A stretch of DNA of 64,000 nt from Thermoanaerobaculia bacterium (lineage in GTDB: Bacteria > Acidobacteriota > Thermoanaerobaculia > Gp7-AA8). This document shows positions 25,218 through 59,573 of the stretch, one piece after another. Location: positions 4,916-68,915 of the forward strand of contig JAXDGL010000014.1 of NCBI GenBank assembly GCA_034665065.1, read 5' to 3'. The notes below the pieces were generated by a model. The model saw nothing but the letters and a program-made list of their open reading frames with translations, was not told the origin of the DNA and ran no database searches. The first letter of the stretch is position 1; each line of letters starts with the position of its first letter. Position numbers and translations under genes: made by a program.

Positions 25218-25247
25218 GAAATCGATCTGCTGCACGGTCTGATTGCG

Positions 25248-26840: not shown

Positions 26841-26941
26841 CGCGTGATTATGTCAGAACAGAAAAAACAGCTCGCGCCATCGTTTGATATTCGGAAGCGG
26901 GGACGGCGCGAAATCCGATTCACGTCAGTTCGCGCGTTCGC

Positions 26942-28834
26942 TCAATCGAACCGCAGCCGGTAAATCTCGATCGACACCGTTTCGGCGAACCGCGACGAAG
27001 GTGCGTCAGCGATCGTGATTGACGTGACGCGTGGCAGTGTTGCCGAAGCTGCATACAGACTGGCGAAATCTTCTTTCGTCCGGATCAGCGGAGAGAGAAG
27101 GAATCCCGCGCGTGCCCCTTTGGGAACGAATGAGAACGATCGACGCCGGCTATCGGTCGTCGTAATCACGAGATTTGGTGGCGTGCCCGCGCGCAAGAGC
27201 AGTGTCTGCAGCCGCTCCCGAAATCGCGGACGGACATCAAGCCGGACGAAGAGTGGCCCCGCCTCGTTAAGACGCACTGTCTGACCGATCCGGATCTCCT
27301 CGCGCAAAAGCAGATCAAGCCGCGGCGGATGCGTCCCGCTCCTCCGATCGAGCACAAGAAACTCACCGTTGAAACCCGCGGGACGGTATCGGGCGAGAAG
27401 TTCCGGCCACGAGGATCCGTCATCGAGCGATGGGAACCTCTCGCCGGCTTCGGCGGATGCAAGACGCCCTTCCAACGCTCGCACATCGAACAGGATCGTC
27501 GACGGCGCCTCCGATCCGCGAAGATGTGATGCGTTCAGCTCGTCGAGCAGCGGCGTCTCCACGCAGTAGGACTGGAACACCGGACGACGGCGTGCCGGCA
27601 GATCGAACGCCCACAACAACGCGCTGCTCGAGGGATAGACATCGAACGTCGTTCCCGCAGGACGCGACGTCAGGTACCTCGCGTACATGTCTCGCGTACT
27701 TTGGCGCAGCCGGTCGAGATCTGACGTGCCGTAGCGAGTGAAGTGCACGAAACGCCGGACGCCCATCTCGACGGACAGCCGCATCGACTGTGCGAGAGGC
27801 GGAAGCTCGCTTGTGACGCGGCTGGCCGCAAGAAGCGCGAGCGCTGCCACCAGCGGAATCATCATCCGCCGCCGTCCGGGTGCAGCGAGCAACGCAACGC
27901 AGGCGAGGGTCGTGGTCGCGATCAACTCGTGCCGGTCGTGGCGAACGAAGCCCGCTTTGAATGTGAGAAAGAAAATCGCTGCCATGCTGCCGGCGGAAAT
28001 GAGCCGCGACGGCGGGGTCATCGTCGCGCCGGTGCACGATCCCCAGACGCAGACCGCGGCGATGACGATGAACGCAACGAGGATCACATGATCCGCAAAC
28101 GCCGAAGAGGCGACGGCCATCGCTTCGCTGTAACTGCTGGCGATCTCCCAAGCAATGCGGACGTACGCCGGGAAGAGTGAGAGCGGTTGACGGGCCAGCA
28201 GCCAGAACGCGGCAAGCGACGCGACGAACGTGGCGCCCGCAGCGGGGAGCCTGCGCTTCAGCAGATCATCCAGCACGGTCGCGCCCACCGCGACGATTGC
28301 GGCGATGAAGAACGAGAACTTGATCAGCGCGACGAGCCCGAGTACCGCTGCCAGAAAGAGCGCCGCCGCACGCCGCCCGTCGCTGGTCTGGATGAGAACC
28401 AACGCAAAGGCAAGGAGGACATACCGGGCGTCAGGAGAGAACCCATCGTCGATCGCCACGAGCGCGGCGACGATCACGATGAACGCGGCTCGCCGCCACG
28501 GATTGACGATCGTCCGCCGCGAGATCTCCGCCGACGCCAGCGTCAGTGCCGCGGCCGTCACGATACCGGCGGCCAATGTCGCAGCGAAGGTGCGTGGGTC
28601 ATATCCGCTGTACGCGAAACCCCACGGTCCGAACGTAAAGGCCACCTGCCGCCCAAACGCGAGCCCGTTCGCGAACGCCTCGTGCAAGACGAGCTGCCAC
28701 GACAGGTCGATGTCCCAGTTGAAAATCCGCGGCTGCCAGGGAATCAGGATCAACGTCGCCAATGCGCACGACGCGGCGAGAACCAGCCGCTCGATCGTCA
28801 GATTCGAGAATCGCGTGGGATGCGCGCCAGTCAT
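26942..28834 (-). CDS. Membrane protein (N-terminal TM domain of about 330 aa plus a C-terminal soluble domain of about 300 aa); unknown function
   Basis: 630-aa ORF with ordinary amino-acid composition and a hydrophobic N-terminal half. 4-nt overlap with the upstream gene. Confidence 0.55.
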   Translation of the reverse strand: MTGAHPTRFSNLTIERLVLAASCALATLILIPWQPRIFNWDIDLSWQLVLHEAFANGLAFGRQVAFTFGPWGFAYSGYDPRTFAATLAAGIVTAAALTLASAEISRRTIVNPWRRAAFIVIVAALVAIDDGFSPDARYVLLAFALVLIQTSDGRRAAALFLAAVLGLVALIKFSFFIAAIVAVGATVLDDLLKRRLPAAGATFVASLAAFWLLARQPLSLFPAYVRIAWEIASSYSEAMAVASSAFADHVILVAFIVIAAVCVWGSCTGATMTPPSRLISAGSMAAIFFLTFKAGFVRHDRHELIATTTLACVALLAAPGRRRMMIPLVAALALLAASRVTSELPPLAQSMRLSVEMGVRRFVHFTRYGTSDLDRLRQSTRDMYARYLTSRPAGTTFDVYPSSSALLWAFDLPARRRPVFQSYCVETPLLDELNASHLRGSEAPSTILFDVRALEGRLASAEAGERFPSLDDGSSWPELLARYRPAGFNGEFLVLDRRSGTHPPRLDLLLREEIRIGQTVRLNEAGPLFVRLDVRPRFRERLQTLLLRAGTPPNLVITTTDSRRRSFSFVPKGARAGFLLSPLIRTKEDFASLYAASATLPRVTSITIADAPSSRFAETVSIEIYRLRFD

Positions 28835-30216
28835 TGCCGAAGTGCTGCCGGAGCGGCGGACATCTCCCCCACGCGCGCGGCGATCACGTCTCCAGTCCGC
28901 ACGACGATGCCGGCTCCTGCCGGCGCGAAGTCGCGCGAACGCTGCACGTACCAGCCCGGATTGCTGGGCGCGTTCACGACGCCCGGGCGCAAGTCGGCGC
29001 CGAGACTCGGATAGTAATGCCGGAGCGCACCGGCATACGACGGGTTGCTGAAGATCGGCTCGCCGGCGCGGTGCGCGTTCACGACGGTCGCGTAAAGCTC
29101 GCGCAGATCCTCAATGTGCATGTACGTGCGGTTGTACGTGTCGCCCGACGCGCCAACGAAGACGACCGGCACAACGAGCAGGAGCAGGAGAGGAATACGC
29201 CGCGCGGCTGCTGCCAATGACGCAGCGATGAGGAGGAACAACGATGGGAAGCAGAAAATCATCAACCGGACTTCACCGTATGGGTAGATGTGGAACGCGC
29301 TGGCAGCCGCCACTTCGATTGGCGGGAGGATCGCAAGCAGCAGCACGACGATATTTCGTTCGCGAATGATCCAGACCAATCCGAGAAGGCCCACTGCCAG
29401 CCACCAGAAGCGGACCAGATTCAGCGACTGTCCCATCCAGTGCATCGTGCCGGTGACAAAGAGCGAGGGAGAGGTAACCCAGCGGCCGGTGGCGGTGAAG
29501 AACTCGGTCATGTCTCCATGCAGACGGACCGTTTCCGGACCGGGCGCGAGCCAACCGAAATACGCCACGCCCCAGAGAGCGAACACGATCGCGAAGCCGG
29601 CCAGCATTCGCGGCTGGCGGATGGAGATCACGGCCATTGCCGCCAGCAAGAAGATGGGCGAGTGAAGCGTCAGCACGGCGATCGCGCTCACCGCAAAAAA
29701 GGCGGCGACCACCCACGCCTTCGGCGATTCACGAAGCCGTAGAAAAAGCACGATCAGCGCAGCAACGAAGCACCCTTCGAGCGTGTATTGCTTCAGGTGC
29801 TCCGAATAGAAAATCAGCGGACTGGAAAAGGCGAGCAGTACGGCCCAGACGAAGCGCGTCAGGCGCGGGAACGGCGCTGCGAGAGCGATGGCACACAGCG
29901 CGACTCCGAAAATCGCCGGCGGCTCGCGGAGCGCCGCGTCGGAAAATCCTCGAACGCTGCTCCAGACGCGCTCGATCCAGTAGAAAAGCGGCGGCGCGTT
30001 GAACGTGTGCGGACGCAATCCACCTCGCTGGACCAGCTCCGAGACCCACACCTCATCTTCGAAAAGAGTGGTGCCGAGGTTGCGGAAGCGGATCGCGGCG
30101 GCCGTGGCCAGCAGGAGGCCGCACGCGAGCGCGTACCATAGATCGTCGTTATTGCGTTCGTTCGTGATCACGAGGCTGCCCGATGCGCTGATGAATGCGA
30201 GGCAGCATGATCTCAC
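28831..30216 (-). CDS. Polytopic membrane protein; GT-C-type glycosyltransferase candidate
   Basis: The track ORF runs to 30519, but its first roughly 100 codons are S/R-rich and overlap the upstream gene. The probable start is the GTG at codon 102 (VRSCCLAFISASGSLVITNERNNDDLWYA...). About 12 TM helices. Confidence 0.5.
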   Translation of the reverse strand: MRSCCLAFISASGSLVITNERNNDDLWYALACGLLLATAAAIRFRNLGTTLFEDEVWVSELVQRGGLRPHTFNAPPLFYWIERVWSSVRGFSDAALREPPAIFGVALCAIALAAPFPRLTRFVWAVLLAFSSPLIFYSEHLKQYTLEGCFVAALIVLFLRLRESPKAWVVAAFFAVSAIAVLTLHSPIFLLAAMAVISIRQPRMLAGFAIVFALWGVAYFGWLAPGPETVRLHGDMTEFFTATGRWVTSPSLFVTGTMHWMGQSLNLVRFWWLAVGLLGLVWIIRERNIVVLLLAILPPIEVAAASAFHIYPYGEVRLMIFCFPSLFLLIAASLAAAARRIPLLLLLVVPVVFVGASGDTYNRTYMHIEDLRELYATVVNAHRAGEPIFSNPSYAGALRHYYPSLGADLRPGVVNAPSNPGWYVQRSRDFAPAGAGIVVRTGDVIAARVGEMSAAPAALRQ

Positions 30217-30253
30217 GCGCGGGAACGCGTCCGCACTCCGGGATCGAAGACTG

Positions 30254-31243
30254 CTACCGACGCTGCGATCGCAAGCGCGCGATCCGTTCCTGAGGCGGCA
30301 GTTCCGCGAGCTCGTAGTAACGCCTGACAGCCGGCGCTGCGTCACCCTGCACTTTCTCCGACTGCGGCGCGTGCCAGAGATGAACGATCGGAAGGTAGCC
30401 GAAGCGCGTGGCGCGAAGCGTCTCCGCGCGTTCCCAGAAATCGACATCCTCACCACCCCATCCGACGAATTTCTCATCGAGTCCGCCGATCGCGTCGTAG
30501 GCCTCACGCCTGATGGCAACGCTTCCGCCGTGAAGATTCTGGATCACGACCTCGCTGTGTTCGTCGAGCGCCAGCCGCTGCGCCGCGATCACCCGTGTCG
30601 TATCCACCGGCGTCAGATAGAAGATGAAGCGCTTCAGATCGACCGCTTCCCACCCATTCTCGACGTGCGCAGCCACCTCGGCCGCATACCGCTCCGGCAC
30701 CAGCATGTCGTTGTCGTGCAGCACGATCGTTCGTCCGCGCGCCGCTGCGGCACCGGTGTTGAACGTCATGGCGCGATTGTATGGATCGGACTCCCCCACT
30801 GGCTGATGGATGTAGCGAACCCACGAGGGCAGCGCGCTCTCGATCTGATTCCGGACATCCTGTTCGATGACGATGCACTCGATCGCAGCGTCGCGCTGCG
30901 CCGCGATCGATCGCAAGGTCAGCAACAGCAGTGGCAACCGCGCAAGACCTCGATGCCCGATCAGGAAGGTAACTTGCGGAGCCTGCGCGTGATCCAGTGC
31001 GCTGGCCAGACGAATCGGCCATTGCGCAAGCGCGGCGCGCAGCAGACGAACATCCGCACCCGGTACGAAGCGGCAATAGTCGACGGGCGACGTCCATCGC
31101 CATTCGCAACGGGCGCCCGGCCCGGAATCATTGATGGTGATCGTTTCGTGCCGGTTGCGGATCAGGTCCCACCGGCCGCGAACGTGACGCTCGAAGCGCA
31201 CGCTGTCGTAGGCAAGGGCACCGAGAAATTGTCGCAAAGGCAT
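30254..31243 (-). CDS. Glycosyltransferase (GT2-like with a beta-1,4-galactosyltransferase-type WGGED motif)
   Basis: QVTFLIGHRG...LRSIAAQ, a DND motif and WGGEDVDFWER. Confidence 0.7.
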   Translation of the reverse strand: MPLRQFLGALAYDSVRFERHVRGRWDLIRNRHETITINDSGPGARCEWRWTSPVDYCRFVPGADVRLLRAALAQWPIRLASALDHAQAPQVTFLIGHRGLARLPLLLLTLRSIAAQRDAAIECIVIEQDVRNQIESALPSWVRYIHQPVGESDPYNRAMTFNTGAAAARGRTIVLHDNDMLVPERYAAEVAAHVENGWEAVDLKRFIFYLTPVDTTRVIAAQRLALDEHSEVVIQNLHGGSVAIRREAYDAIGGLDEKFVGWGGEDVDFWERAETLRATRFGYLPIVHLWHAPQSEKVQGDAAPAVRRYYELAELPPQERIARLRSQRR

Positions 31244-31442
31244 CGCGCCATTCTAGGCTGAGGAACGCATCGTGGAGGCGAGCAGCCTCTGATCCGTCGC
31301 CGCTACTACGCCAAGCCGTTCACTTCTCGCTCATAATCAGGTACTCGATGGAGTTTGTGGCGGGCAGTTCTTAAAAGCATTTCACGCGGAGACGCGGGGG
31401 ACGCGGAGAAAACCGCGCTCGCATCGCCTCGATCACGACGAC

Positions 31443-33278
31443 GTGCTTACGGTTCAGAATTCCAACAGAAAGCGGCAACCTCGACGAATGCTTCAGGATC
31501 TCCTCTACCCCTTCGATGCCGCCCACCTTTTGCGGCATCGCAAACGTATTCGCCGGCAGTTGCTGGAAGGCAGCAACTGGATCGACATCCGAATTGCCAC
31601 CCTTGCCGGAAGCACCGCGCAAGAGGTGCTCGATCTCCTCGAGTTGTTCCTTCTCAATGACGGAATCCGCCCCACGTTTTACCAGTCGGACTACAACCGC
31701 TACTACGAGGAGGCGCTGTTCGACAGCGCGCGGCTCGAAGAGTTCCAGCCGGATCTCGTCTACGTCCACACGTCCGCGGTCAACGTCCACCACCACCCGA
31801 CGATCACGTCCACCGCTGACGAGATCGCAGAGCTCATCGAATCGGAAGTGAATCGCTACGAATCGATCTGGAAGGCGGTCACGGAAAAGACGCGCTGTCA
31901 GGTGATTCAGAACAACTTCGAGGCTCCCGCAACACGGGGCACGGGGAGTTTCGACTATGCGTCGCCATCGGGACGAACGCGCTTCTTCACGCTTCTCAAC
32001 GCCGCGATGGCGCAGCGAGCGTCGAACGGCCGGCGAGTCGTCATGCACGACCTTGCAACGGCCGCATCGATCACCGGTCTCGATCAGTGGAGCGATCCCG
32101 CACGATGGTTCAGCTACAAGATTTCCACCACTCCCGCGGGCAGCGCGATGTGGGCTCATTCGCTGGCCAACACGATTCGGGCGATCTATGGCCGCTCGCG
32201 CAAATGCCTCGTTCTCGATCTCGACAAGACGCTGTGGGGTGGCGTGATCGGCGACGACGGCGCCGGCAACATCCGCATCGGGCGGGAAACAGCCGAGGGA
32301 GAGGCGTTCACGGCATTTCAGGAGTATTGCCTGGCGCTGCAGCAGCGCGGAGTGATTCTGGCAGTCTGCTCGAAGAATGAGGACCTCATCGCCAGAGAAG
32401 GTTTCGCACATCCCGCGACCACTCTGCGGCTCGAACATTTTTCCGCGTTCGTGGCGAACTGGGAACCGAAATCCGAGAACATCCGCCGCATCGCGTCGAC
32501 GCTCAACATCGGCCTGGACAGCATGGTCTTCGTCGATGACAACCCGGCGGAGCGCGAGATCGTACGTTCGCAGCTTCCGGCAGTGGCTGTTCCCGAAGTC
32601 GGCGACGACGTGAGCCGCTATCCGCTCATGATCGACCGCGGCGGCTACTTCGACATCGTCACGCTGTCATCCGACGACATCAATCGCAGCAGGCAGTACG
32701 CCGCCAACGAAGAACGGACCGCCCTGAGCGGGGCGTACGGCAGCTATGGCGATTATCTGACCGCTCTCACGATGCGCGCGGAGATCGCGCCGTTCCGCGA
32801 CGTATACCTCGAGCGAATCACGCAGCTCACGAACAAAACGAATCAGTTCAATCTCACCACACGGCGCTACACGATGAGCGAGATCGCCGAGATCGCATCC
32901 GACCCGCGTTACATCACGCTGTATGGCCGCCTCGAAGACCGATTCGGCGACAATGGGCTGGTGAGCGCGATCATCGGCCGCAAGGAAGAATCCGCGCTGC
33001 ACATCGATCTCTGGCTGATGAGCTGCCGCGTGATTCAGAGAGAGATGGAGCTGGCGATGCTGGACGCGCTTGTCGAGAAGGCGCTCGACGCCGGCATCCA
33101 GACGATCAACGGCTGGTACGAACGGACTCCGAAGAACAACATGGTGGCCGATCACTACGCCAGGCTCGGATTCACGAAAGTCCCCGCTGCGGATGACGGC
33201 AGCAGGAGCGACTGGATCCTCGATCTTCGTTCCGGCTATGCCCCTCGCAATACACACATCGAAAGGATTGCCCTTTGA
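31443..33278 (+). CDS. FkbH-like HAD-superfamily (subfamily IIIC) protein with an N-terminal extension of about 230 aa; probable loader of a glycolysis-derived glyceryl unit onto a carrier protein
   Basis: HAD motif I (CLVLDLDKTLWGGVIGDDG), FVDDNPAEREIV, and C-terminal regions recalled from FkbH/OzmB-type proteins. The start may instead be the Met at codon 16. Confidence 0.75.
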   Translation: MLTVQNSNRKRQPRRMLQDLLYPFDAAHLLRHRKRIRRQLLEGSNWIDIRIATLAGSTAQEVLDLLELFLLNDGIRPTFYQSDYNRYYEEALFDSARLEEFQPDLVYVHTSAVNVHHHPTITSTADEIAELIESEVNRYESIWKAVTEKTRCQVIQNNFEAPATRGTGSFDYASPSGRTRFFTLLNAAMAQRASNGRRVVMHDLATAASITGLDQWSDPARWFSYKISTTPAGSAMWAHSLANTIRAIYGRSRKCLVLDLDKTLWGGVIGDDGAGNIRIGRETAEGEAFTAFQEYCLALQQRGVILAVCSKNEDLIAREGFAHPATTLRLEHFSAFVANWEPKSENIRRIASTLNIGLDSMVFVDDNPAEREIVRSQLPAVAVPEVGDDVSRYPLMIDRGGYFDIVTLSSDDINRSRQYAANEERTALSGAYGSYGDYLTALTMRAEIAPFRDVYLERITQLTNKTNQFNLTTRRYTMSEIAEIASDPRYITLYGRLEDRFGDNGLVSAIIGRKEESALHIDLWLMSCRVIQREMELAMLDALVEKALDAGIQTINGWYERTPKNNMVADHYARLGFTKVPAADDGSRSDWILDLRSGYAPRNTHIERIAL

Positions 33279-33514
33279 CCGACACACTGGAGAGACTGCA
33301 GCCCATTTTCCGCGATGTTCTCGACGATCCAAAGCTGGTGATCGATCGCCAGTCGAACGCACGCAATGTCGAGGGGTGGGACTCGCTGGCGCACATCAAT
33401 CTGATCGCTTCGATCGAACAGGACTTCCACGTCCGCTTCGCGCTCGGCGAGCTGCAGGATCTCGAGAACGTCGGTGACATGATCGACCTCATCGAACGGA
33501 AGCAGCAGACGTGA
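33275..33514 (+). CDS. Acyl carrier protein (ACP-1)
   Basis: 79 aa with the phosphopantetheine attachment motif EGWDSLAHINL. 4-nt overlap with the FkbH-like gene. Confidence 0.85.
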   Translation: MTDTLERLQPIFRDVLDDPKLVIDRQSNARNVEGWDSLAHINLIASIEQDFHVRFALGELQDLENVGDMIDLIERKQQT

Positions 33515-33930
33515 ACGAATACCGGTGGGCGGATCTGGCCATCGGGATGCGCGAGCAGTTTGCGGTCCTCATCGAAGAATCGACGGTCGACGCGTTCGTT
33601 GCGCTGACAGGCGACATCAATCCTCTTCACGCCGATTCCGATGCGGCGCGCGAAGCCGGGTTTCATACGCGCCTCGTTCACGGTCTGCTCACCACTTCCT
33701 ATTACTCGACGCTCGTCGGCGTCTACCTGCCGGGGCGCTACGCTCTGCTTCAGGGTATCGATGTCAAATTCGCACTTCCGGTCTACCCGGGCGATACTTT
33801 GACGGTGTCGGGCGAGATCACCTTTCTGAGCGAAGCGGTTCGTCTGGCGGAGATCGCCGGCGAAATCCGCAACGGAGAAGGAGCGCGCATTTCGAAAGCG
33901 AAGATACGAGTAGGTATCCGTGAGCGATGA
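33511..33930 (+). CDS. MaoC-like (R)-specific hydratase/dehydratase (hotdog fold)
   Basis: ALTGDINPLHADSDAAREAGFHTRLVHGLLT hotdog active-site region. 4-nt overlap with the ACP gene. Confidence 0.8.
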   Translation: MNEYRWADLAIGMREQFAVLIEESTVDAFVALTGDINPLHADSDAAREAGFHTRLVHGLLTTSYYSTLVGVYLPGRYALLQGIDVKFALPVYPGDTLTVSGEITFLSEAVRLAEIAGEIRNGEGARISKAKIRVGIRER

Positions 33931-34675
33931 ATCGATTCTCATTACCGGCGCATCCTCCGACATCGGGGAGGCGCTCGTCAGGCGGCTCGCGGCGAGCAAC
34001 GCAGCGCGCCCGCTGATCTGTCACTACAGCAGCGGCCGAACGCGGATCGAAGAACTTCAGAAAGAGCTCGGTCCATCCATCGTCCCGATGCGGGGCGACT
34101 TCTCATCGAGCGCATCGATCGACGCATTCATCGAGTCGCTCCGCGCCGCCAACGTTGCTCCCTACTCCTTCGTGCATCTTCCCGCCAGCAAGCTCCGCTA
34201 TGAGCGATTTTCGAAGCAGACGCGGTTACAGTTCGAGCGCGATTGGCAGATCCAGGTCGGCTCGGCGATCGCAATCCTCCAATACTCGCTGGCCGGGCAG
34301 AAGCGGCTCTCCGACAAGCAGCTCCCCCGCCGCCGCGTCGTCTTCGCCCTTTCCAGCGTCACCCTCGGCACTCCGCCGAAATACCTATCGATGTACACGG
34401 CGATCAAGTACGCGCAACTCGGCCTCATGCGGTCACTGGCCGTCGAGTACGGCGACCTCGGCGTATCGGTGAATGCCGTTTCGCCGTCGATGGTGGAGAC
34501 GCAGCTTCTTTCCGAAGTGCCGCGGCAGATCGTCGAGACCAGTCAGTCGCAGAATCCGATGGGACGCAACGCCACTCCCGGCGATGTCGCAGCGGTAATC
34601 GAGTTTCTCCTGTCTGATCAGGCAGACTTCATCAACGGCGCAAACGTTCCTGTAACCGGCGGCAGCATTCTCTGA
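33920..34675 (+). CDS. SDR-family oxidoreductase (FabG-like ketoacyl/acyl-carrier reductase)
   Basis: ILITGASSDIGEAL cofactor motif and a catalytic YTAIKYA (YxxxK) motif. Confidence 0.85.
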   Translation: MSDESILITGASSDIGEALVRRLAASNAARPLICHYSSGRTRIEELQKELGPSIVPMRGDFSSSASIDAFIESLRAANVAPYSFVHLPASKLRYERFSKQTRLQFERDWQIQVGSAIAILQYSLAGQKRLSDKQLPRRRVVFALSSVTLGTPPKYLSMYTAIKYAQLGLMRSLAVEYGDLGVSVNAVSPSMVETQLLSEVPRQIVETSQSQNPMGRNATPGDVAAVIEFLLSDQADFINGANVPVTGGSIL

Positions 34676-36114
34676 TGCCGTTCAACTCCTTCCCATTCGT
34701 TCTTCTGTTTCTGCCGGTCGTCGTCATCGCGTATCGGGCCGCACTCCGGATCTCCCCCGCCGCGGCCCGAGGAGCTTTGCTTCTCTCCTCGCTGCTCTTT
34801 TACGCGCTCAATAGCTGGAAACATCTGCCGGTCCTGATCGCAAGCATTCTCGTGAATTTCGTTGTCGCGCATCGGATCGCGCAGCAATCCGAGAGACGGC
34901 CGCGCGTTGTTTGGCTATGGGCCGGAATCGTTTTCAACCTTGGGCTCCTTTGTCTGTTCAAGTATGCGAGCACCCTCCCGCTGCTCTCCGTCGCCATTCC
35001 CTCCTGGGGATTTCCGCTCGGCCTGAGCTTTTTCACGCTGCAGCAGGTGGCATTGCTCGTCGACGTGTACGAGGAACTGCTCCCGCCGCAGCGACTCGGC
35101 ATGCATGCGCTGTTCGTCTCGTTTTTTCCCTACGTAACGGCCGGACCGATCAGCCGCGGCAAACGGATGTTTCCGCAGTTGGAGCGAGGAGGGAACGATC
35201 GCGATTACGCGTTCGATGCCGCTCGAGGCTTGGCGATTTTCGGCATGGGGTTGTTCAAGAAGGCCGTGTTCGCTGAATGCTTTCGGACGATCGCGGACAA
35301 AGGTCTCGATCACCCCTACCTACTCTCCTCACTCGAAGCGTGGATCTGTTCGTTCGCCTACACCATGCAGATCTACTTCGACTTCAGCGGCTACACCGAT
35401 ATGGCCATCGGCGTGGCACTCCTGATTGGCTTCGACATTCCGCGCAACTTCGACGCACCGTACCGCTCACGCTCCATCATCGAGTTCTGGCAGAGATGGC
35501 ACATCAGTCTCTCCCAGTTCATCACGACCTATCTCTACACGCCGATCATCCGCCTCTTCCGGCGGGCAACGTTGCGCGCCGCGGCAATCGCGACGATGGC
35601 GTCGATGCTCATCGCCGGGATCTGGCACGGCTCGTCATGGAACTTCGTGATCTTCGGCGGACTTCATGGTCTGGCTCTCGTGGCTAATCAGCTCTGGAAA
35701 AAGAAAACGAAGCGCCGCCTGCCGGCCCTGGCCGCGTGGGCGCTGACACTGACGTGGGTCAACCTTGCCTTCATCTTCTTTCGTCTGCCCGATCTCTCCT
35801 CCGCGCTGCATGTATCGCGGATGCTGATTCCGTTCGACAACCCTTTTGCAGGCTCGGCGATTTTTGTTTCTCCATCCGCGCGCAGCGGCGTCAAGGAGAT
35901 CGCGGACATCATGGCCCGTCCCGCTCTCTGGACGGTCGGACTGCCTGCATTGATCGCTGCACCGCTGGCTGTGCTTGGGCCAACGTCCCATTGGTGGCTG
36001 GACGATTTTCGCCCTACTCTGATCACCGCCGCGGCCATCGCGGCAATCCTTTTGATCGCGTTTCTCTTCATGAACTCAGCCAATGCAACCGACTTCATCT
36101 ACTTCCGGTTCTGA
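34675..36114 (+). CDS. MBOAT-family membrane-bound O-acyltransferase (DltB/AlgI/PatA type)
   Basis: Polytopic protein with the MBOAT signature region DAPYRSRSIIEFWQRWHISLSQF and a conserved His. Confidence 0.85.
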   Translation: MPFNSFPFVLLFLPVVVIAYRAALRISPAAARGALLLSSLLFYALNSWKHLPVLIASILVNFVVAHRIAQQSERRPRVVWLWAGIVFNLGLLCLFKYASTLPLLSVAIPSWGFPLGLSFFTLQQVALLVDVYEELLPPQRLGMHALFVSFFPYVTAGPISRGKRMFPQLERGGNDRDYAFDAARGLAIFGMGLFKKAVFAECFRTIADKGLDHPYLLSSLEAWICSFAYTMQIYFDFSGYTDMAIGVALLIGFDIPRNFDAPYRSRSIIEFWQRWHISLSQFITTYLYTPIIRLFRRATLRAAAIATMASMLIAGIWHGSSWNFVIFGGLHGLALVANQLWKKKTKRRLPALAAWALTLTWVNLAFIFFRLPDLSSALHVSRMLIPFDNPFAGSAIFVSPSARSGVKEIADIMARPALWTVGLPALIAAPLAVLGPTSHWWLDDFRPTLITAAAIAAILLIAFLFMNSANATDFIYFRF

Positions 36115-37036
36115 AAAAGGAGCGAGCGTTTCCGACGCTCTCCCGCGGCCACGGTTGAGCGCCGCCGCATGGTCGCGCATCGTGATTCTCACCGTCGCCG
36201 TAATCGGCGGCTCGTTCGCGGCGATGAACCACTACCTCGACCCGATGGGCGTCTTTCATTCCAAACCTCACGTCAGCATCTACACCAACGAGCGATGGTC
36301 GAAATACCTGTTGAGTACGCGTTACGTGCCCGAGAACTTCGACGCAGTACTCGTCGGCACGTCGGCCACGGACAACTGGAACACGGGCCTGATTCTGCCG
36401 CTGCGCACGTACAACCTGTCGCTCGAAGGGGGAAACGCGTCCGAGGCAAGGGTGCTGCTCGAGAATGTGATCAGGCGCAGAAGACCGAAGATCGTTTTCT
36501 TCTGCATCCATCCGTACCTCACTGCAAGCTACGGGCGCCAGACTCCCTACATGACGAAGGCTGACTACTGGAGCGCGCTCGGCTCACTCGAGTTGCTGAG
36601 GACCTATCAGGGCGAACTGCGCGTGAAGCGAGGTACGAGCCAGCAGGAGTTCAATGAGTTCGGCCAGCGATTCTTCAATATTCCGGCTCGCCCGTGGCAT
36701 GCCACATTCAATGGAGCCGATTGGTATCGCGTCGACGAACGCTCCCTCGCGGACTACGGCGCCATGGTGGCGAATGCAAGAGCCTCGGGCGCGCGCATCG
36801 TTGCAGTCGTTCCGCCCGTGGCGACGGAGTTTTGGCAACTGGCGGGGACCGCGTTTCAGGGATACCAACGGCAGCTCATGCCGTTCTTTCACGAAGGCGA
36901 TCTCGTGATCGACTTCAACACTCCCCCTTACGATTCTCTGCGATCCGATCGTGCGAATTTTCCCGACGGTATCCACCTCACCACGTCTGCAGCGGACGCA
37001 TTTGTGAGAGAGCTGGCGAGATTGGTCAGCCGCTGA
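36083..37036 (+). CDS. Membrane-anchored periplasmic partner of the MBOAT protein (AlgJ/AlgX/DltD-type acyltransferase/esterase-like)
   Basis: N-terminal TM anchor (WSRIVILTVAVIGGSFAAM) followed by a soluble domain of about 280 aa. Position immediately after the MBOAT gene with a 32-nt overlap. Confidence 0.5.
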   Translation: MQPTSSTSGSEKGASVSDALPRPRLSAAAWSRIVILTVAVIGGSFAAMNHYLDPMGVFHSKPHVSIYTNERWSKYLLSTRYVPENFDAVLVGTSATDNWNTGLILPLRTYNLSLEGGNASEARVLLENVIRRRRPKIVFFCIHPYLTASYGRQTPYMTKADYWSALGSLELLRTYQGELRVKRGTSQQEFNEFGQRFFNIPARPWHATFNGADWYRVDERSLADYGAMVANARASGARIVAVVPPVATEFWQLAGTAFQGYQRQLMPFFHEGDLVIDFNTPPYDSLRSDRANFPDGIHLTTSAADAFVRELARLVSR

Positions 37037-37061
37037 ACGTTCGGACCGCTATCATTCGTCA

Positions 37062-37934
37062 ATGAGCGATCCCTGGTATTTCAGCGACTTGGCGTGTCCC
37101 GATTGCGCGGGTCCGATCGAGATCTCTGAAGACAGCCTCACGAGTCGTTGCGGCTTCCAGGCTCCGCTCGCAAAACAACTCGACCTCCGGCCGCAACATC
37201 CGCGGCCACGCACCGTCAGCGTGAATGTCCAGACATCCGCTCCCGAGGATCTGGAGAAGATCGATCTCGCCCGCCCCGACGTGACCTACTCTGGTCCGTC
37301 CGCAATCCGCGACTCTGCCGAGCTGCTCTCCGCTGTCCAGCCGTACCTCCGCACCGGAGCGCGTCTGCTCGACCTCGGATGCGGACCGCGCGACCAGTTC
37401 AGGCCCGCCGAGCATCTCGACCTGCAGTACGTCGGCATCGACTTCGAGTCAGAGAAAGCCGACATCCTGGCAGATGGTCACGCCATTCCCTTCGGTGACG
37501 CCGCGTTCGACGCCGTATTTTCGTACGCGGTTCTCGAGCACCTGCACACACCGTCGCTTGCACTATCGGAAGTCGCGCGCGTGCTCCGCAAGGGAGGGGT
37601 GTTCTTCGGAACCGTGTCGCAAGGAGAGCCGTTTCACAACTCGTTTTTTCACTACACGGCATGGGGCGTGCTCGCCGCGTTTCGGTCCGCCGGCCTGCGC
37701 GCCGTGCGGCTCTGGCCTTCCTACGACACTCTGCACGCACTTGCTGGGATGGGGCGATATCCCCGATTGACCAAACTTCTGATCGAGCTCACCTATCGAT
37801 TCTCAGAAGCCACGCCGTTCCTCGCGCCACGAGCCTTTCTGCACAGCTCGAAGCGCCAGAAGGAAGTGGAGCGAATTCATCGCGCCGCAAGCATCTGTTT
37901 CGTGGCCCTGCACGACGACGCGTGGAACGCTTGA
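37062..37934 (+). CDS. Class I SAM-dependent methyltransferase with an N-terminal Cys4 zinc ribbon
   Basis: CPDC...C N-terminus, motif I (LLDLGCGPRD) and motif post-II (LRKGGVFFGTV). Confidence 0.75.
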   Translation: MSDPWYFSDLACPDCAGPIEISEDSLTSRCGFQAPLAKQLDLRPQHPRPRTVSVNVQTSAPEDLEKIDLARPDVTYSGPSAIRDSAELLSAVQPYLRTGARLLDLGCGPRDQFRPAEHLDLQYVGIDFESEKADILADGHAIPFGDAAFDAVFSYAVLEHLHTPSLALSEVARVLRKGGVFFGTVSQGEPFHNSFFHYTAWGVLAAFRSAGLRAVRLWPSYDTLHALAGMGRYPRLTKLLIELTYRFSEATPFLAPRAFLHSSKRQKEVERIHRAASICFVALHDDAWNA

Positions 37935-37952: not shown

Positions 37953-38507
37953 TCAGCCACTGCGCTCGCCGATGACGCGCGCCGGAACGCCGGCAACGAT
38001 CGCATTCGGCGGAATGTCCTTGGTAACCAGCGAACAGGCAGAGACGATCGCGCCATCTCCGATCGTGACTCCCGCCGCGATCACCGACTGCGGATAGATG
38101 GTGACGTCGTTTCCGATCGCTACCGGCGCACAGCGAATCCCCTGCTCATCCGTCCGCTGCCCTCGTCCGGCAACGTGAGAGTGATCCGAGATAACGACGT
38201 GCGCACCAATAAGGCTGTGCGACCCAATCGTGATCGACTCGGCGGCATGGATGACACAGCCGGTGGCGAGAAATGAGTAGCTGCCAATCTCCAGGCGCGC
38301 CGTCTCACTCACGATCTTGATGTAGACGCCATGCTCGATCTCCACGTGATCACCGAGGAGCATGCATTGCGGCAAGCGAAATCGGGCACCAGTGCCGATC
38401 TGGCTCTTGGTTCCGATCCGAGCGCCACGAAGACGCAGGAACATCGCCCGGACACGTCCGGCGACCAGTCTCGACAGACGCCCCAACCGCTCCAGAGCGT
38501 GCGTCAT
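37953..38507 (-). CDS. Hexapeptide-repeat (LbH) acyltransferase
   Basis: Repeated [LIV]GxxxxI hexapeptides (IGSYSFLATGCVIHAAESITIGSHSLIGAHVVISDHSHV). The start is taken at the internal Met (MTHALERL), as the upstream part of the ORF is low-complexity. Confidence 0.8.
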   Translation of the reverse strand: MTHALERLGRLSRLVAGRVRAMFLRLRGARIGTKSQIGTGARFRLPQCMLLGDHVEIEHGVYIKIVSETARLEIGSYSFLATGCVIHAAESITIGSHSLIGAHVVISDHSHVAGRGQRTDEQGIRCAPVAIGNDVTIYPQSVIAAGVTIGDGAIVSACSLVTKDIPPNAIVAGVPARVIGERSG

Positions 38508-38636
38508 CGCGGCTGTCTGTTCCCGATCTGGTTCCGTCGTTGCGGCGCGATCGTCATCCCGCCGATTATCGCAGGTCTGCTGCGCGCAAACCCGGCAAGC
38601 GATGAATCGCACGTCGCGATCGTTGCCCTACGACCG

Positions 38637-38876
38637 TCACTGCCGAAGCTTCCGCTCGAGCAGATCGGCCATGTCTCCAACGGTCTTCAACGACTGTACT
38701 TCGCCCACGGAGAAGCGGAACGCAAATTCCTTCTCGATCGACGTGATCAGGCTGATCTGCGCGAGGGAGTCCCAGTTCTCGACATTCGCCGGACTCGATT
38801 CGCGCGTCAGCACGAACGACGGCTCGTCGAGGACGTCGCGGAAGATGGGCTCCAGGCGTTGAAGAATGTCGGACAT
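38637..38876 (-). CDS. Acyl carrier protein (ACP-2), paralog of ACP-1
   Basis: 79 aa with ENWDSLAQISL. About 55% identical to ACP-1 over the full length (MSDILQRLEPIFRDVLDEP.. versus MTDTLERLQPIFRDVLDDP..). Confidence 0.8.
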   Translation of the reverse strand: MSDILQRLEPIFRDVLDEPSFVLTRESSPANVENWDSLAQISLITSIEKEFAFRFSVGEVQSLKTVGDMADLLERKLRQ

Positions 38877-38883
38877 CGTCGGT

Positions 38884-40869
38884 CTAGTGCGCGCGCGAAT
38901 GGTAAATGATCCATGATCCGGAACGAGTTACCGGATCCCAGAACGGCGACTTGATTTCCCGATCGACGAGCAGATAGTCCGCTTCGCGGGCGATGCTGCC
39001 GGCAGCGATAGGGTTCGCCGGATCGCGCATGAACGCGGACCATAGCGCGACGCGTCCCGCCATGGAAGAGCCGGGCGCTGGAACAACAAATTGCTCGGTA
39101 TTCGGTGTGGGAAGCCAGACCCGACGCTCGGCGATCCAGAGCGTCGGCAGCACGTCGCGCATCGTCAGTCCGCCGGGGTCGGCCACAATCGAATCCTTTG
39201 GCGTGTTGTCACGGAGCCAAAGCAGCGCGTCGTAGTAATCGCGCGCCAGCGTCTCGCCGCGCGATCGCGATCCGGTGAGCCGGTAGAACGGAAACTGAAG
39301 GACATACGCGGACGTCTGCATTGCGCCAAGCACCATGAGCAGCATGGCGACAATCGTTTGCCAGCCCCGCATCGAGCCCGACATCCATCGATCGAACGTC
39401 ACCACGATGAGCGGCGCGAATGCAATCGCCAGCATCGAGCCGGTCTTCATCGAGAAGTCGATCTGGCCTGTCGGACTGCCGGCGACGTAGAGAAACGACG
39501 GCACTACGATCGACGTAACGATCAGAACATGAAGGAAGCGCAGCGGCTGCCTGCCGCCGAGAAGCAGCAGGCCCCATAGCGGAAGCATCCCGAGAATCAC
39601 GATGCGAAGGAACTGCCCGCGGTCGAACAGCACGGCCGCATGGCGCGCGCCGCCGGAGCCGAGCACATGGATGGCGACGAACATCGCGATCGAAGCGCCA
39701 CCGATCGCGATCGCCGCGATCAAAACGGTGACCGGCCGTGCGATCCGCCCCATCGCCAGCCAGAGAAGCAGCGCGGCCACGAGCGGTAAGAGCAACGTCA
39801 CGCTGTAGCCGGTCACCATCGACAACGCAATCGTTCCCAGAATTACGTCGAGAACGCGCCGCTCGCGATTCCATCGCTCCACGAACATCGCTGTCAGAAG
39901 AACGAGCACGAGCGCGAACGTGTTGTTCCCGAACACGATCATGCTGTTCACCGGCGCGAGAATCAGATGGTTCCGCTCGGGCATGGCCAAAGGGCCGAGA
40001 GGAAGCCGGGCCGCGAGCAGTTGGTAGTAGTAGAGAGAGAACGGCGCGAACAGGGTCACCACAACCGCCAACTGCACCGCACGGCGATGCAGCGTTGTGT
40101 TGAGCGAGGAGACCGCCTCAGTCACCGTATGAATCAGGAGCGCCGCCATCAGCAGATTGCCGAGAATGAGCGCGTTGCTCGCCGGAATCGACGCGCCGCA
40201 AAAGTCCGCCAACGTCGCCGGCAGCGTGAAGTAGAGCCAGTGATAGTTCATCGGCCCGCCGCCGGCGATGCTGTCCAGCGGCAGCATCGGTGACGCGCGC
40301 AACAACGCCACAACGGACACGAGATTGCCGAAGTCGATGGCGAATAGCCCATGAAACAGCACGTCGCGGCCCGACGAGGCTGCGTAGCCGAGCCACACGA
40401 GTGCGAACAGCAGAGGCAGAACGATCAGCACGACGAACCGGGAGCGCCTCAGCGCCGGGCCGAGCTCGTCGAACGTTGTCCTCACCTCGCCAAACTTTGC
40501 CGCTGCTCCGATGAGAATCAGACACCCTGCGATGTCCGTAACCGCCGGAAGAAACGGCAATGCCTTGCGCAGAAAAAACCAAGGTACGACGAGCATGACG
40601 ACGAGCGCGCTCGCCGCCGTGATCCGGAGATCGGCCGGCATCGCCCGAATGTGCGGGATGCGCAGAGCGAGAACGCCCGCAGGAAGAAGAAACCCCGCCA
40701 CGAACACGATGAAGACCGCCGCCGCCAACACGCTGCCTGCCAGGTCAACGAGAATGAGCGCATCGAGCAGGACGACCACGGCGATTAAAGCAGTCCTCGC
40801 CGCAGACGACGACGTTCGGACCTGCGCCAGCGATGAATCCGAAGGATTCATGAGCAGCCGGCCGCCCAT
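38884..40869 (-). CDS. Large polytopic membrane protein with a C-terminal periplasmic domain of about 130 aa; possible polymerase or GT-C-like protein
   Basis: 661 aa with more than 12 TM helices. Directly upstream of ACP-2 and the LbH acyltransferase. Confidence 0.55.
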   Translation of the reverse strand: MGGRLLMNPSDSSLAQVRTSSSAARTALIAVVVLLDALILVDLAGSVLAAAVFIVFVAGFLLPAGVLALRIPHIRAMPADLRITAASALVVMLVVPWFFLRKALPFLPAVTDIAGCLILIGAAAKFGEVRTTFDELGPALRRSRFVVLIVLPLLFALVWLGYAASSGRDVLFHGLFAIDFGNLVSVVALLRASPMLPLDSIAGGGPMNYHWLYFTLPATLADFCGASIPASNALILGNLLMAALLIHTVTEAVSSLNTTLHRRAVQLAVVVTLFAPFSLYYYQLLAARLPLGPLAMPERNHLILAPVNSMIVFGNNTFALVLVLLTAMFVERWNRERRVLDVILGTIALSMVTGYSVTLLLPLVAALLLWLAMGRIARPVTVLIAAIAIGGASIAMFVAIHVLGSGGARHAAVLFDRGQFLRIVILGMLPLWGLLLLGGRQPLRFLHVLIVTSIVVPSFLYVAGSPTGQIDFSMKTGSMLAIAFAPLIVVTFDRWMSGSMRGWQTIVAMLLMVLGAMQTSAYVLQFPFYRLTGSRSRGETLARDYYDALLWLRDNTPKDSIVADPGGLTMRDVLPTLWIAERRVWLPTPNTEQFVVPAPGSSMAGRVALWSAFMRDPANPIAAGSIAREADYLLVDREIKSPFWDPVTRSGSWIIYHSRAH

Positions 40870-40999: not shown

Positions 41000-42148
41000 T
41001 CACGCGCTCGCTCCGGCACGCGGGCGCCACGACCGTATCCGGTCGATCACCCGGCTCTGATCCTCGTCCGTCAGGTTGTTGTAGAACGGGAGCCGCAGCA
41101 ATCGATCACTGGCGCTCTCCGCAACCGGACACTGTCCCTCACGTCCGCCGAAGTGCATCCCCATCTCCGAGGTGTTGAGCGGCAGGTAGTGAAATACAGC
41201 GTAGATCTCCTGCGCGCGCAGATGCGCGATCATCGACGTCCTCGCTTCGAGCGACTCGAACAGCAGGTAGAACATGTGAAAGGGCTGTTCGCAACCGTCG
41301 GGAACGGCCGGCCTCCTCACGCCGCAGCCGGCTGCCCAATCCGCAAGCTCGGCGTCATACCTCTCCCACACTCTCCGCCTCTTCCCCTGAATCACCTCGG
41401 CCTTCTCCATCTGGCCGACCAGATACGCCGCCAGCATGTCCGACGGCAGATAGCTCGATCCGATATCGACCCATGTGTACTTGTCGACCTGACCGCGAAA
41501 GAAGCGGCTGCGGTTCGTGCCTTTCTCGCGGATGATCTCCGCCCGCTCGATGAGCGCCGGATCGTTGATGACGAGCGCGCCCCCTTCCCCGCAGTTGATG
41601 TTCTTGGTTTCGTGAAAACTCTGTGTGGCCATCCGCCCGAACGTCCCCAACGGCCGCCCGTGGTATCTACCGAACAGACCATGCGCGTTGTCTTCGATGA
41701 CGTCGAGTCCATGGCGCCGGGCGATATCCATGATCGCATCCATCTCGCAGCCGACTCCTGCGTAGTGCACCGGCGCGATGGCGCGCGTGCGGGGCGTGAT
41801 CAGCGATTCGAGTTGCGCTTCGTCGATGTTGAGCGTGTCCGGCCGGATGTCCGCAAACACCGGCACCGCACCGCGCAGGACGAACGCATTGACGCCGGAG
41901 ACAAACGTGAACGAAGGAACGATGACTTCATCGCCGGCGCGGAGATCGAGCAGAATCGCCGCCATCTCCAGCGCATGCGTGCAGGAGGTCGTCAGCAACA
42001 CCTTCGGCGCACCGAGGATCGACTCCAGCATCGTGTTCCCGCGCTTGGTGAACGCGCCGTCGCCGGAGATGTGAAGCGCGGAAATCGCCTCTCGCACCAG
42101 ATCCAGCTCCCTCCCTTCGACAGCCGGCTTGTTGAACGGTATCGTCAT
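41000..42148 (-). CDS. DegT/DnrJ/EryC1/StrS-family sugar aminotransferase (WecE/ArnB-like NDP-4-keto-6-deoxyhexose transaminase)
   Basis: MTIPFNKP N-terminus and a PLP-lysine region (SFHETKNINCGEGGALV). The start is at the internal Met of the track ORF. Confidence 0.85.
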   Translation of the reverse strand: MTIPFNKPAVEGRELDLVREAISALHISGDGAFTKRGNTMLESILGAPKVLLTTSCTHALEMAAILLDLRAGDEVIVPSFTFVSGVNAFVLRGAVPVFADIRPDTLNIDEAQLESLITPRTRAIAPVHYAGVGCEMDAIMDIARRHGLDVIEDNAHGLFGRYHGRPLGTFGRMATQSFHETKNINCGEGGALVINDPALIERAEIIREKGTNRSRFFRGQVDKYTWVDIGSSYLPSDMLAAYLVGQMEKAEVIQGKRRRVWERYDAELADWAAGCGVRRPAVPDGCEQPFHMFYLLFESLEARTSMIAHLRAQEIYAVFHYLPLNTSEMGMHFGGREGQCPVAESASDRLLRLPFYNNLTDEDQSRVIDRIRSWRPRAGASA

Positions 42149-45764: not shown

Positions 45765-45767
45765 CGA

Positions 45768-59559: not shown

Positions 59560-59573
59560 AATGGTGGCACCGC

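Follow-up and report, generated by a model that had tools for sequence, protein, structure and literature searches.

Why would an operon in the middle of a bacterial glycan locus encode an FkbH-like loading enzyme, an acyl carrier protein (ACP), a dehydratase and a reductase together with an MBOAT membrane O-acyltransferase and an extracytoplasmic partner? The question is raised by six genes at positions 31443–37036 of a 64,000-nucleotide stretch of DNA from a Thermoanaerobaculia bacterium (Acidobacteriota; assembly GCA_034665065.1, contig JAXDGL010000014.1), referred to here, at its full length, as the window. Our analysis indicates, with a probability of roughly 0.6, that the operon encodes a carrier-protein-dependent MBOAT-SGNH system that O-acylates a cell-surface glycan outside the cytoplasmic membrane. 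By analogy with known FkbH enzymes, the acyl group is probably a glycerate-derived C3 unit, most likely lactyl or glyceroyl; the narrower assignment to lactyl is tentative, with a somewhat less than even chance of being correct. The six genes are:

31443–33278, plus strand: FkbH-like three-domain loader (FkbH_N, HAD-IIIC phosphatase and C-terminal GNAT-fold domain; from profiles, motifs and model)
33275–33514, plus strand: acyl carrier protein ACP1, 79 aa (PP-binding, 2.4e-7; WDSL site)
33511–33930, plus strand: MaoC-type (R)-specific hotdog dehydratase, 139 aa (MaoC_dehydratas, PF01575, 1.2e-18)
33920–34675, plus strand: FabG-like short-chain dehydrogenase/reductase (SDR), 251 aa (adh_short_C2, PF13561, 3.5e-34)
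34675–36114, plus strand: MBOAT membrane O-acyltransferase, 479 aa (MBOAT, PF03062, 1.7e-25)
36083–37036, plus strand: membrane-anchored extracytoplasmic SGNH-fold acyltransferase partner, 317 aa, or 293 aa when started at 36155

Genes were called with our own map of open reading frames (ORFs) and taken from JGI calls (metagenome 3300044807, the 158-kb contig Ga0467037_0000042, of which the window is a part). The ORF map agrees with an earlier reading of this DNA (the sequence-only reading), in which the six ORFs were described as co-directional and tightly packed. The first four junctions overlap by 4, 4, 11 and 1 bp, in this order, which suggests translational coupling: the ACP1 gene overlaps the FkbH stop codon by 4 bp, and the stop codon of the SDR gene overlaps the start codon of the MBOAT gene. 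The junction between MBOAT and partner is a 32-bp overlap, or a 40-bp gap when the JGI start of the partner (36155) is used. The G+C content is uniform over the operon.

Profile searches of each ORF, as the sequence-only reading had proposed, matched FkbH, PP-binding, MaoC_dehydratas, adh_short and MBOAT. The FkbH-like protein has 611 residues when started at 31443; the likely true start is 31488 (JGI call), which yields 596 residues. Residues 253–578 match the TIGR01686 FkbH domain with an E-value of 1.7e-87 (293.6 bits, twice the curated cut-off of 146.65), and the HAD-IIIC profile is matched at 7.9e-18 (65.6 bits, cut-off 35.75), in agreement with the FkbH/HAD-IIIC assignment made earlier. 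HAD motif I, DLDKTLW (D259 and D261; 32217–32237), is present together with the SKN and DDNP motifs, and the C-terminal domain contains an SCRV sequence (33021–33032) with C528 in the 611-residue numbering. The HAD aspartates, the columns of the other HAD motifs and the SCRV cysteine are invariant in an alignment of 22 full-length homologues (52–80% identical); the catalytic Asp motif, on which the FkbH assignment had been made to depend, is present and conserved throughout. In OzmB, the invariant cysteine is the glyceryl-S-enzyme site.

The N-terminal part of the FkbH-like protein had been taken for an uncharacterised extension of about 230 residues. It is an FkbH_N domain (PF21211; weak Pfam match, 9.4e-4), which is kept in thousands of homologues of about 595 aa and is present in PDB entry 3SLR, BF1531 of Bacteroides fragilis. 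BF1531 shares the N-terminal domain and the HAD phosphatase with the protein studied here, and only its N-terminal part was crystallised; the title of this structural-genomics entry, to which no function is assigned, names the 'N-terminal part of BF1531 from Bacteroides fragilis containing phosphatase domain' and mentions no function or partner. The 3SLR sequence aligns with residues 36–379 of the FkbH-like protein (6.8e-51). In an AlphaFold2 model of the latter (pLDDT 80.8), the N-terminal domain plus the HAD domain match 3SLR with a TM-score of 0.88, normalised to the target, and the C-terminal ~170 residues adopt a GNAT fold. Since a GNAT-fold C-terminal domain fits binding of the pantetheine arm and acyl transfer, the three-part architecture is the one expected of a bifunctional phosphatase/acyl-transferase.

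For the next three products, the PP-binding, MaoC_dehydratas and adh_short_C2 profiles agree with the small ACP, hotdog dehydratase and SDR of the sequence-only reading. The predicted phosphopantetheine site of ACP1 is Ser37 (DSL at 33380–33388). The MaoC protein contains the hydratase-2 Asp/His motif GDINPLH (33610–33630), and the SDR contains TGASSDIG and a YxxxK motif (Y159-T-A-I-K163); the SDR reaches no NCBIfam equivalog cut-off.

The product of 34675–36114 is an MBOAT, as had been predicted, both by its PF03062 match and by its closest solved structure: the MBOAT core is most similar to DltB (6BUG, 2.4e-31), and the histidine of its WHG sequence, the predicted catalytic His318 (codon 35626–35628), aligns with the WHG histidine of DltB. 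The C-terminus reads FIYFRF (residues 474–479; 36094–36111), which places Tyr476 within an FxYxxF motif. This motif is an acyl shuttle: the MBOAT acylates the tyrosine, which then gives the acyl group to the SGNH partner (Anderson et al., PMC12148441). Dlt carries the motif on the separate microprotein DltX; PatA and the other non-Dlt MBOATs have it as part of the enzyme itself, fused to two extra C-terminal helices (PMC12148441). Because the motif is fused to the C-terminus here, the MBOAT is architecturally of the PatA/AlgI type and not of the DltB plus DltX type; its score on the DltB equivalog TIGR04091 is 195.3 bits, short of the 375 required. Of the DltC/DltB/DltD-like logic of the sequence-only reading, the combination of an MBOAT with an ACP and a membrane-anchored partner holds, but the MBOAT itself departs from the DltB plus DltX arrangement.

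The partner has a single N-terminal transmembrane (TM) helix and was modelled as an SGNH fold, with loops of low confidence at residues 155–212. No curated family was matched above threshold in the profile searches (GDSL_2 reached only 0.0054). Its motifs are G-T-S94, G116-G-N and D295-G-I-H298. GxS94, N111, G116 and D295xxH298 are invariant in 13 partner homologues and correspond to SGNH blocks I, II/III and V; Ser94, Asp295 and His298 are the proposed triad. A scan of 1.8 billion cluster representatives with a hidden Markov model of the partner yielded 237 relatives at a threshold of 1e-30 and 1,484 when this was relaxed to 1e-3; almost all have ~300–320 aa, and the partner thus belongs to a sizeable unnamed family. 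By hhalign it is homologous (97.3%, E-value 2.4e-11) to a protein of ~350 aa encoded directly after the MBOAT in many loci of Bacillota and Bacteroidota. It resembles DltD and PatB solely in fold. Of the AlgJ/DltD-like partner proposed earlier, the membrane anchor with one TM helix holds; the predicted fold is generic SGNH, and no ALGX, DHHW or DltD family profile was matched. An AlgJ/AlgX identity was considered separately and rejected, as no ALGX or DHHW profile matched and hhalign against DHHW-type partners gave a probability of 0.3%. A truncated metagenomic protein of 579 aa (P0245) has an MBOAT core, through the WHG helix, joined directly to a TM anchor and an SGNH domain, and lacks the FxYxxF tail; it may be a genuine fusion or an artefact of assembly or of a deletion, and was not used as evidence.

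Linkage of these genes was determined in other genomes. The FkbH alignment was scanned against one genome per GTDB species, and the best 80 of at least 585 confirmed matches were used. ORFs in these loci were called with a longest-ORF heuristic and classed against the window proteins and by all-against-all clustering. An FkbH-family ORF was recovered in 79 of the 80 loci; the counts below refer to these 79 and to genes within 6 kb of FkbH. The loci come from at least six phyla and comprise Acidobacteriota, Gamma-, Alpha- and Epsilonproteobacteria, Desulfovibrio, many gut and rumen Bacillota, Odoribacter (Bacteroidota), Synergistota, cyanobacteria, Chloroflexota and one metagenome-assembled genome (MAG) of Endomicrobiellum. 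A small ACP was present near FkbH in 68 loci. The neighbourhood survey of FkbH beside MBOAT, suggested by the sequence-only reading, found an MBOAT in 52 of the 79 loci, and in 35 of the 49 that extend 5 kb or more to either side of FkbH. The ACP directly adjoins the MBOAT in ~20 loci and the genes occur in several orders. FxYxxF ends 50 of the 57 FkbH-linked MBOATs. The protein adjoining the MBOAT is an SGNH partner of the 317-aa type in 13 loci and of the DHHW/AlgX type in 15. MaoC is present in 18 loci and SDR in 12; the SDR lies downstream of MaoC in 11 of the 18 (immediately in 10), and in four loci a single MaoC-SDR fusion protein (Pfam confirmed) is encoded next to FkbH. Six MAGs repeat the order FkbH, ACP, MaoC, SDR, MBOAT, usually with a partner next: one of Rhodanobacteraceae (L002), one of Oleispira (L016) and four of Bacillota (L021, L031, L039 and L045).

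The reverse test started from three MBOAT homologues (45–48% identical) on large contigs with lengths that do not occur in the FkbH match list. In all three, an FkbH gene and a small ACP-sized ORF (80–85 aa) lie immediately upstream and a partner of 301–336 aa immediately downstream; a PP-binding match was recorded for the ACP-sized ORF of L084 only. L084 has the full six-gene order; the locus around it is of the Wzx/Wzy type and contains Bac_transf, GT4, GT2, Wzy_C, Poly_export and a Polysacc_synt flippase. The L083 cassette adjoins polysaccharide assembly or export genes. In addition, a plasmid protein search identified a minimal cassette of MBOAT, a 409-aa SGNH-like protein, ACP and FkbH on Sinorhizobium meliloti pSymB (ml47, L088, 5720–10755; also Rm41, L087, and 1021, L089), with the rkpR/S/T genes for capsule export ~4 kb away. 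The MBOAT of this cassette ends in FLYQGF, and its SGNH-like protein is misannotated as a 'TonB-dependent receptor'. In our own ORF calls on the PLSDB records, FkbH is intact in Rm41 and split into two ORFs in 1021. Overall, the FkbH-ACP-MBOAT arrangement is far beyond chance.

The same survey bears on the most familiar role of FkbH proteins. All biochemically characterised members come from polyketide synthase (PKS) or tetronate pathways, and FkbH matches were also found on Streptomyces and Bacillus plasmids, so the operon might be read as a secondary-metabolite module that makes a methoxymalonyl-, hydroxymalonyl- or lactyl-ACP extender or starter unit for a PKS. The genes conserved beside FkbH, however, encode an MBOAT and an SGNH or DHHW protein with an extracytoplasmic location. 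No ketosynthase, AT, acyl-CoA dehydrogenase, FkbI/FkbK-type dehydrogenase, PKS or AMP-binding gene was present among the genes called over ~63 kb of the 64 kb window. Among the seven largest neighbouring ORFs across the related loci there was no PKS or non-ribosomal peptide synthetase; these encode glutamate synthase, SNF2 helicase, BspA-LRR, molybdopterin oxidoreductase, outer-membrane β-barrel, SbcC-like and ORF6N proteins. We regard the PKS-precursor role as highly improbable; the related clusters lie among glycan genes and not PKS genes, the outcome that the sequence-only reading had set against co-occurrence with PKSs. An FkbH-type enzyme takes the place of the DltA-type ligase, as that reading also proposed, and no AMP-binding domain is encoded in the operon or elsewhere in the ~63 kb.

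From the gene content, motifs, predicted folds, glycan context and linkage observed, we infer a function that goes beyond domain identity, fold and synteny, in four steps. FkbH and ACP are known to form glyceryl-S-ACP from 1,3-bisphosphoglycerate (PMC7489565). In the first step, the FkbH-like enzyme would take a phosphorylated C3 glycolytic intermediate, D-1,3-bisphosphoglycerate by analogy with every characterised FkbH; the HAD domain would remove the phosphate, and the glyceryl group would be held on the invariant cysteine of the GNAT-fold domain before being passed to holo-ACP1. In the second, MaoC would remove the 3-hydroxyl group to give enol-pyruvoyl- or pyruvoyl-ACP, and the SDR would reduce the 2-oxo group to give lactyl-ACP. 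As no ketosynthase is present, the MaoC and FabG-like SDR lack a fatty-acid-type substrate, and the MaoC-SDR fusions support two enzymes that act together. In the third, the acyl-ACP would dock at the cytoplasmic face of the MBOAT, and His318 would move the acyl group to Tyr476 at the outer face, as deduced from the biochemistry of PatA and of DltB/DltX. In the fourth, the SGNH partner would accept the acyl group on Ser94 and then acylate a hydroxyl group on the glycan that the surrounding locus produces.

The second step has a precedent in the FR901464 starter unit, for which conversion of glyceryl-ACP to lactyl-ACP by a dehydratase and a ketoreductase has reportedly been demonstrated (He et al., Angew Chem 2014). 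The GAT-ACP-DH*-KR* loading module of FR901464/spliceostatin follows the same order of chemistry: FkbH-type transfer of glyceryl to ACP, dehydration to pyruvoyl and ketoreduction to lactyl. It differs in having a PKS-embedded double-hotdog DH and a PKS-type KR, whereas here the MaoC protein and the FabG-like SDR are free-standing, and their product would leave the cell as an ester instead of being extended.

The genes between ACP and MBOAT vary among the related loci: there are none, MaoC plus SDR, a VOC/glyoxalase gene, or an aldo-keto reductase with a split transketolase and MaoC. This variation, together with the methyltransferase gene that follows the partner gene in the window, raises the question of whether the same ACP-dependent MBOAT-SGNH machinery carries another acyl group: unmodified glyceroyl with MaoC and SDR acting elsewhere, a hydroxypyruvoyl- or acryloyl-derived group, or a group O-methylated by the downstream enzyme. 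A substrate of FkbH other than 1,3-bisphosphoglycerate falls under the same alternative, and our searches of open-access literature turned up no assayed member of the glycan-associated FkbH clade of ~595 aa. On the other side, the FkbH domain scores well above its cut-off and the HAD and Cys motifs are invariant. Moreover, in the absence of a ketosynthase, a dehydratase and a ketoreductase acting on 2,3-dihydroxypropanoyl-ACP would on chemical grounds, and with the FR901464 precedent, most simply lead to lactyl-ACP. A different acyl group or FkbH substrate is, on balance, unlikely, and a glycerate-derived C3 unit is preferred for this operon. Judged by gene content, cassettes that lack MaoC and SDR would deliver glyceroyl, and the VOC and transketolase/aldo-keto reductase variants would imply further acyl diversity. 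The L-glycerate ester of gellan was considered as a possible product of a cassette of this kind.

These variants were seen as follows. A VOC/glyoxalase-family protein is encoded near FkbH in 14 of the 79 loci; it has ~130 aa (Glyoxalase_4, 2.3e-19) and often lies between ACP and MBOAT (L004, L028, L029, L042, L050, L051, L070 and others). One may speculate that it serves to epimerise the acyl-ACP at C2. In 5–6 loci a transketolase split into its N- and C-terminal halves is encoded near FkbH, in three of them with an aldo-keto reductase as well. The split-transketolase cassettes are from Bacillota MAGs (L026, L030, L035, L038 and L065), most of which also have MaoC, and three of them (L030, L035 and L038) combine split transketolase, aldo-keto reductase and MBOAT. 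The split transketolase would imply a thiamine-pyrophosphate-dependent remodelling of the ACP-bound unit. In five loci (L014, L018, L020, L050 and L067) the linked MBOATs end in FIYARI or FIYASI rather than FxYxxF, and are followed by a 202-aa HAD-family (phosphoserine-phosphatase-like) protein and not by an SGNH or DHHW partner.

Several points weigh against an ACP-fed MBOAT. PatA, a characterised MBOAT with a fused FxYxxF, uses acetyl-CoA, and the non-Dlt MBOAT/SGNH pathways are stated to lack a carrier protein because they use acyl-CoA (PMC12148441). As the characterised enzymes of this architecture depend on acetyl-CoA, the case for ACP use by the MBOAT here is one of gene linkage alone. 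The percentages given above describe the close FkbH subfamily of ~595 aa and not all FkbH proteins. Of the 49 fully flanked loci, 14 have no MBOAT, and some of these carry FemAB or GNAT acyltransferases instead, so FkbH-ACP can apparently feed other transferases. A second ACP lies beside a cytoplasmic LbH acyltransferase in the window itself. Finally, MaoC and SDR occur in a minority of the loci, from which it follows that the acyl group varies and that lactyl is one chemically coherent option. In three Acidobacteriota MAGs without an MBOAT (L006, L007 and L009), a small ACP-like ORF precedes FkbH and a FemAB-family or GNAT gene adjoins; GT2 genes are nearby in L006 and L009. Here the FkbH-ACP module apparently supplies acyltransferases of the cytoplasm.

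Together these points suggest a reading in which two separate decorations are made: the MBOAT-SGNH pair would be an ordinary acetyl-CoA-dependent O-acetyltransferase, similar to PatA/PatB or AlgI/AlgJ, and FkbH, ACP, MaoC and SDR would feed a cytoplasmic acyltransferase (the LbH protein at 37953–38612, or a GNAT protein) that acts on a nucleotide- or lipid-linked sugar. The PatA/AlgI-type tail of the MBOAT, the position of the second ACP next to the LbH acyltransferase and the FkbH-ACP loci with FemAB or GNAT all fit such a division. It does not account for the direct ACP-MBOAT adjacency or for the co-localisation of MBOAT and FkbH across phyla and in several gene orders, nor for the three-out-of-three result of the reverse test. 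Minimal four-gene cassettes of MBOAT, partner, ACP and FkbH occur without another acyltransferase (S. meliloti pSymB and L082), the SDR and MBOAT genes overlap at stop and start codon in the window, and the pairing of LbH and second ACP is not conserved elsewhere. Two separate decorations are therefore unlikely, though this is the strongest of the competing explanations, and a single ACP-dependent MBOAT-SGNH pathway is favoured.

The setting of the operon was determined from JGI calls with Pfam matches over ~63 kb of the window and from our own profile scans. Nearly the whole window (~9268–63302) forms a single glycan locus of ~55 kb, with the operon in its middle. The glycan setting of the sequence-only reading is borne out by the following genes:

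9268–10350: initiating transferase of the WecA/MraY family, WecA-like
10355–12115: asparagine-synthase-like gene
14282–16323: Wzm/Wzt-type ABC-2 transporter
18506–19621: RGP-family glycosyltransferase
within 57802–59889, minus strand: carbamoyltransferase
61893–63302, minus strand: Wzy_C (ligase/polymerase) protein

The locus also contains many GT2 and GT4 glycosyltransferases, at least six methyltransferases, a WecE-like dTDP-4-amino-4,6-dideoxyhexose transaminase, and WbqC, GNAT and PhyH dioxygenase genes. Five polytopic membrane proteins (517, 530, 630, 562 and 661 aa; 23664–30519 and 38884–40869) have no Pfam family, one showing a weak match to Agl23 (1.9e-10) and one a weak match to LA_3751/3752; they look like uncharacterised GT-C-type periplasmic glycosyltransferases.

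In principle, the acceptor could be another molecule of the envelope than a polysaccharide, that is, peptidoglycan, a glycolipid, lipid A or a lipoprotein. The known substrates of MBOAT-SGNH pairs include peptidoglycan and teichoic acids besides exopolysaccharides (PMC12148441), and the cassette of L082 lies outside recognisable glycan genes. The position of the operon within the ~55 kb locus and the polysaccharide assembly or export genes beside the L083, L084 and S. meliloti cassettes make such an acceptor improbable, and a surface polysaccharide remains the preferred one.

Compared with known systems, the operon is like a hybrid: it follows Dlt in its carrier-protein logic, PatA/AlgI in the architecture of its MBOAT, and the methoxymalonyl-ACP and tetronate pathways in its loader. 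In Dlt (DltA/DltC/DltB/DltX/DltD), loading is performed by the adenylating ligase DltA and not by an FkbH/HAD-IIIC enzyme, the shuttle motif is carried by a separate microprotein and not by a fused tail, and the partner belongs to the DltD family, which that of the operon does not match; the MBOAT here is homologous to DltB but reaches 195 of the 375 bits needed for the equivalog. Dlt D-alanylates teichoic acids, whereas the host here is a diderm Acidobacteriota and the predicted group is a hydroxy acid and not an amino acid. The operon has the features of the PatAB/AlgIJ-type class, namely the MBOAT histidine, a C-terminal FxYxxF and an adjacent SGNH-type partner with Ser, Asp and His. PatA/PatB, AlgI/AlgJ/AlgX and WssH/WssI use acetyl-CoA and no carrier protein (PMC12148441), whereas the operon here also encodes an ACP, an FkbH loader and tailoring enzymes of the ACP type; it is this difference from the published statement on non-Dlt pathways that makes the operon of interest. 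AlgJ/AlgX systems have an ALGX/DHHW partner, a domain that is absent from the partner here, though DHHW partners do occur in 15 of the related loci. With FkbH, OzmB and ZmaN the operon has in common the FkbH domain, the HAD motifs and cysteine, and a standalone ACP immediately downstream. It differs from the methoxymalonyl-ACP and tetronate pathways in that there is no PKS, FkbI/FkbK-type dehydrogenase or FabH-like tetronate synthase, and in that the acyl-ACP would be used by a membrane acyltransferase encoded among glycan genes.

The sequence-only reading held that this combination had not been described. In about 8 million open-access full-text papers and preprints, with subscription-only literature outside the search, we found no account of FkbH/HAD-IIIC genes with MBOAT/AlgI or in polysaccharide loci; the two papers retrieved that mention both FkbH and MBOAT concern cyanobacterial aeruginosin and suomilide clusters. 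At even odds, the operon represents a large, previously unrecognised class spread over many phyla, in which FkbH puts a glycolytic C3 unit on an ACP, the unit may be tailored at the ACP level, in the manner of a small PKS-style assembly line (by MaoC plus SDR, VOC, or aldo-keto reductase plus transketolase), and the MBOAT exports the ester together with an SGNH or DHHW protein. Glyceroyl, lactyl and related hydroxyacyl esters would then be common yet overlooked on capsules, O-antigens and wall polymers of gut Bacillota and Bacteroidota, soil Acidobacteriota and rhizobia, and use of a carrier protein could no longer be taken as confined to Dlt. MBOAT-SGNH pairs acylate alginate, cellulose, peptidoglycan and teichoic acids, and acylation of the envelope governs immune recognition, resistance to lysozyme and antimicrobial peptides, phage adsorption and biofilm properties. 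If correct, this class would give a physiological role to thousands of genes annotated as 'HAD-IIIC family phosphatase / FkbH-like' outside polyketide clusters, would predict new ester decorations on the surface glycans of many bacteria from the gut, the rumen, soil and plants, and would provide a test case for how an MBOAT chooses between a CoA and a carrier-protein donor. The gene set is widespread, and cultured carriers of related cassettes, including S. meliloti Rm41, Eisenbergiella tayi, Ruminococcus flavefaciens 007c and Odoribacter splanchnicus, make the hypothesis directly testable. The cassettes of S. meliloti Rm41, O. splanchnicus and E. tayi contain neither MaoC nor SDR, so glycerate would be the expected acid there; among the related loci, those with MaoC and SDR all belong to uncultured MAGs.

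The flanks of the operon and a nearby gene group contain the following features:

31244–31442, no strand: divergent intergenic region of ~200 bp, presumed promoter region of the operon (ORF map)
37062–37934, plus strand: class I SAM methyltransferase, 25 nt downstream of the partner gene (Methyltransf_11, 1.3e-15)
37953–38612, minus strand: WcaF-like hexapeptide (LbH) acyltransferase (Hexapep, 5.8e-16; WcaF subfamily, 7.6e-24)
38637–38876, minus strand: second ACP paralogue, ACP2 (47 of 79 residues, 59%, identical to ACP1; same WDSL site)
38884–40869, minus strand: 661-aa protein with ~14 TM segments and a C-terminal soluble domain, no family match

The divergent region is flanked by a GT2 gene (30254–31243, minus strand) and the FkbH gene. 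A scan for the sigma-70 consensus yielded no promoter there, which says little for an Acidobacteriota genome, and in the promoter and terminator scans no signal exceeded the shuffled background. Downstream, convergent minus-strand genes meet the operon after the methyltransferase gene, which is probably co-transcribed with it. Given the divergent upstream region and the convergent genes that follow the methyltransferase, the simplest transcription unit runs from 31443 or 31488 to 37934. The methyltransferase is not a conserved member of the cassette: its sole homologue in the 80 loci lies ~6 kb upstream of FkbH (L011), and none follows a partner gene. ACP2 is located between the WcaF-like acyltransferase and the 661-aa polytopic protein, and this group may form a second acylation branch, cytoplasmic or GT-C-linked, that shares the FkbH loader.

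Three minor observations concern the remainder of the window. At ~5708–6269 on the plus strand, three tiny consecutive JGI genes (75, 51 and 61 aa) without a family match are flanked by the genes of an unknown protein of 593 aa and of a MoxR-type AAA ATPase. The plus strand shows a strong A>T skew at 26–30 kb, which is due to the minus-strand membrane genes located there. Finally, the stretch 42000–48000 has a G+C content of 0.54–0.58, as compared to ~0.61–0.64, and contains GNAT, WbqC, methyltransferase, PhyH-family dioxygenase and GT2 genes; it may be a horizontally acquired sub-module of the glycan locus.

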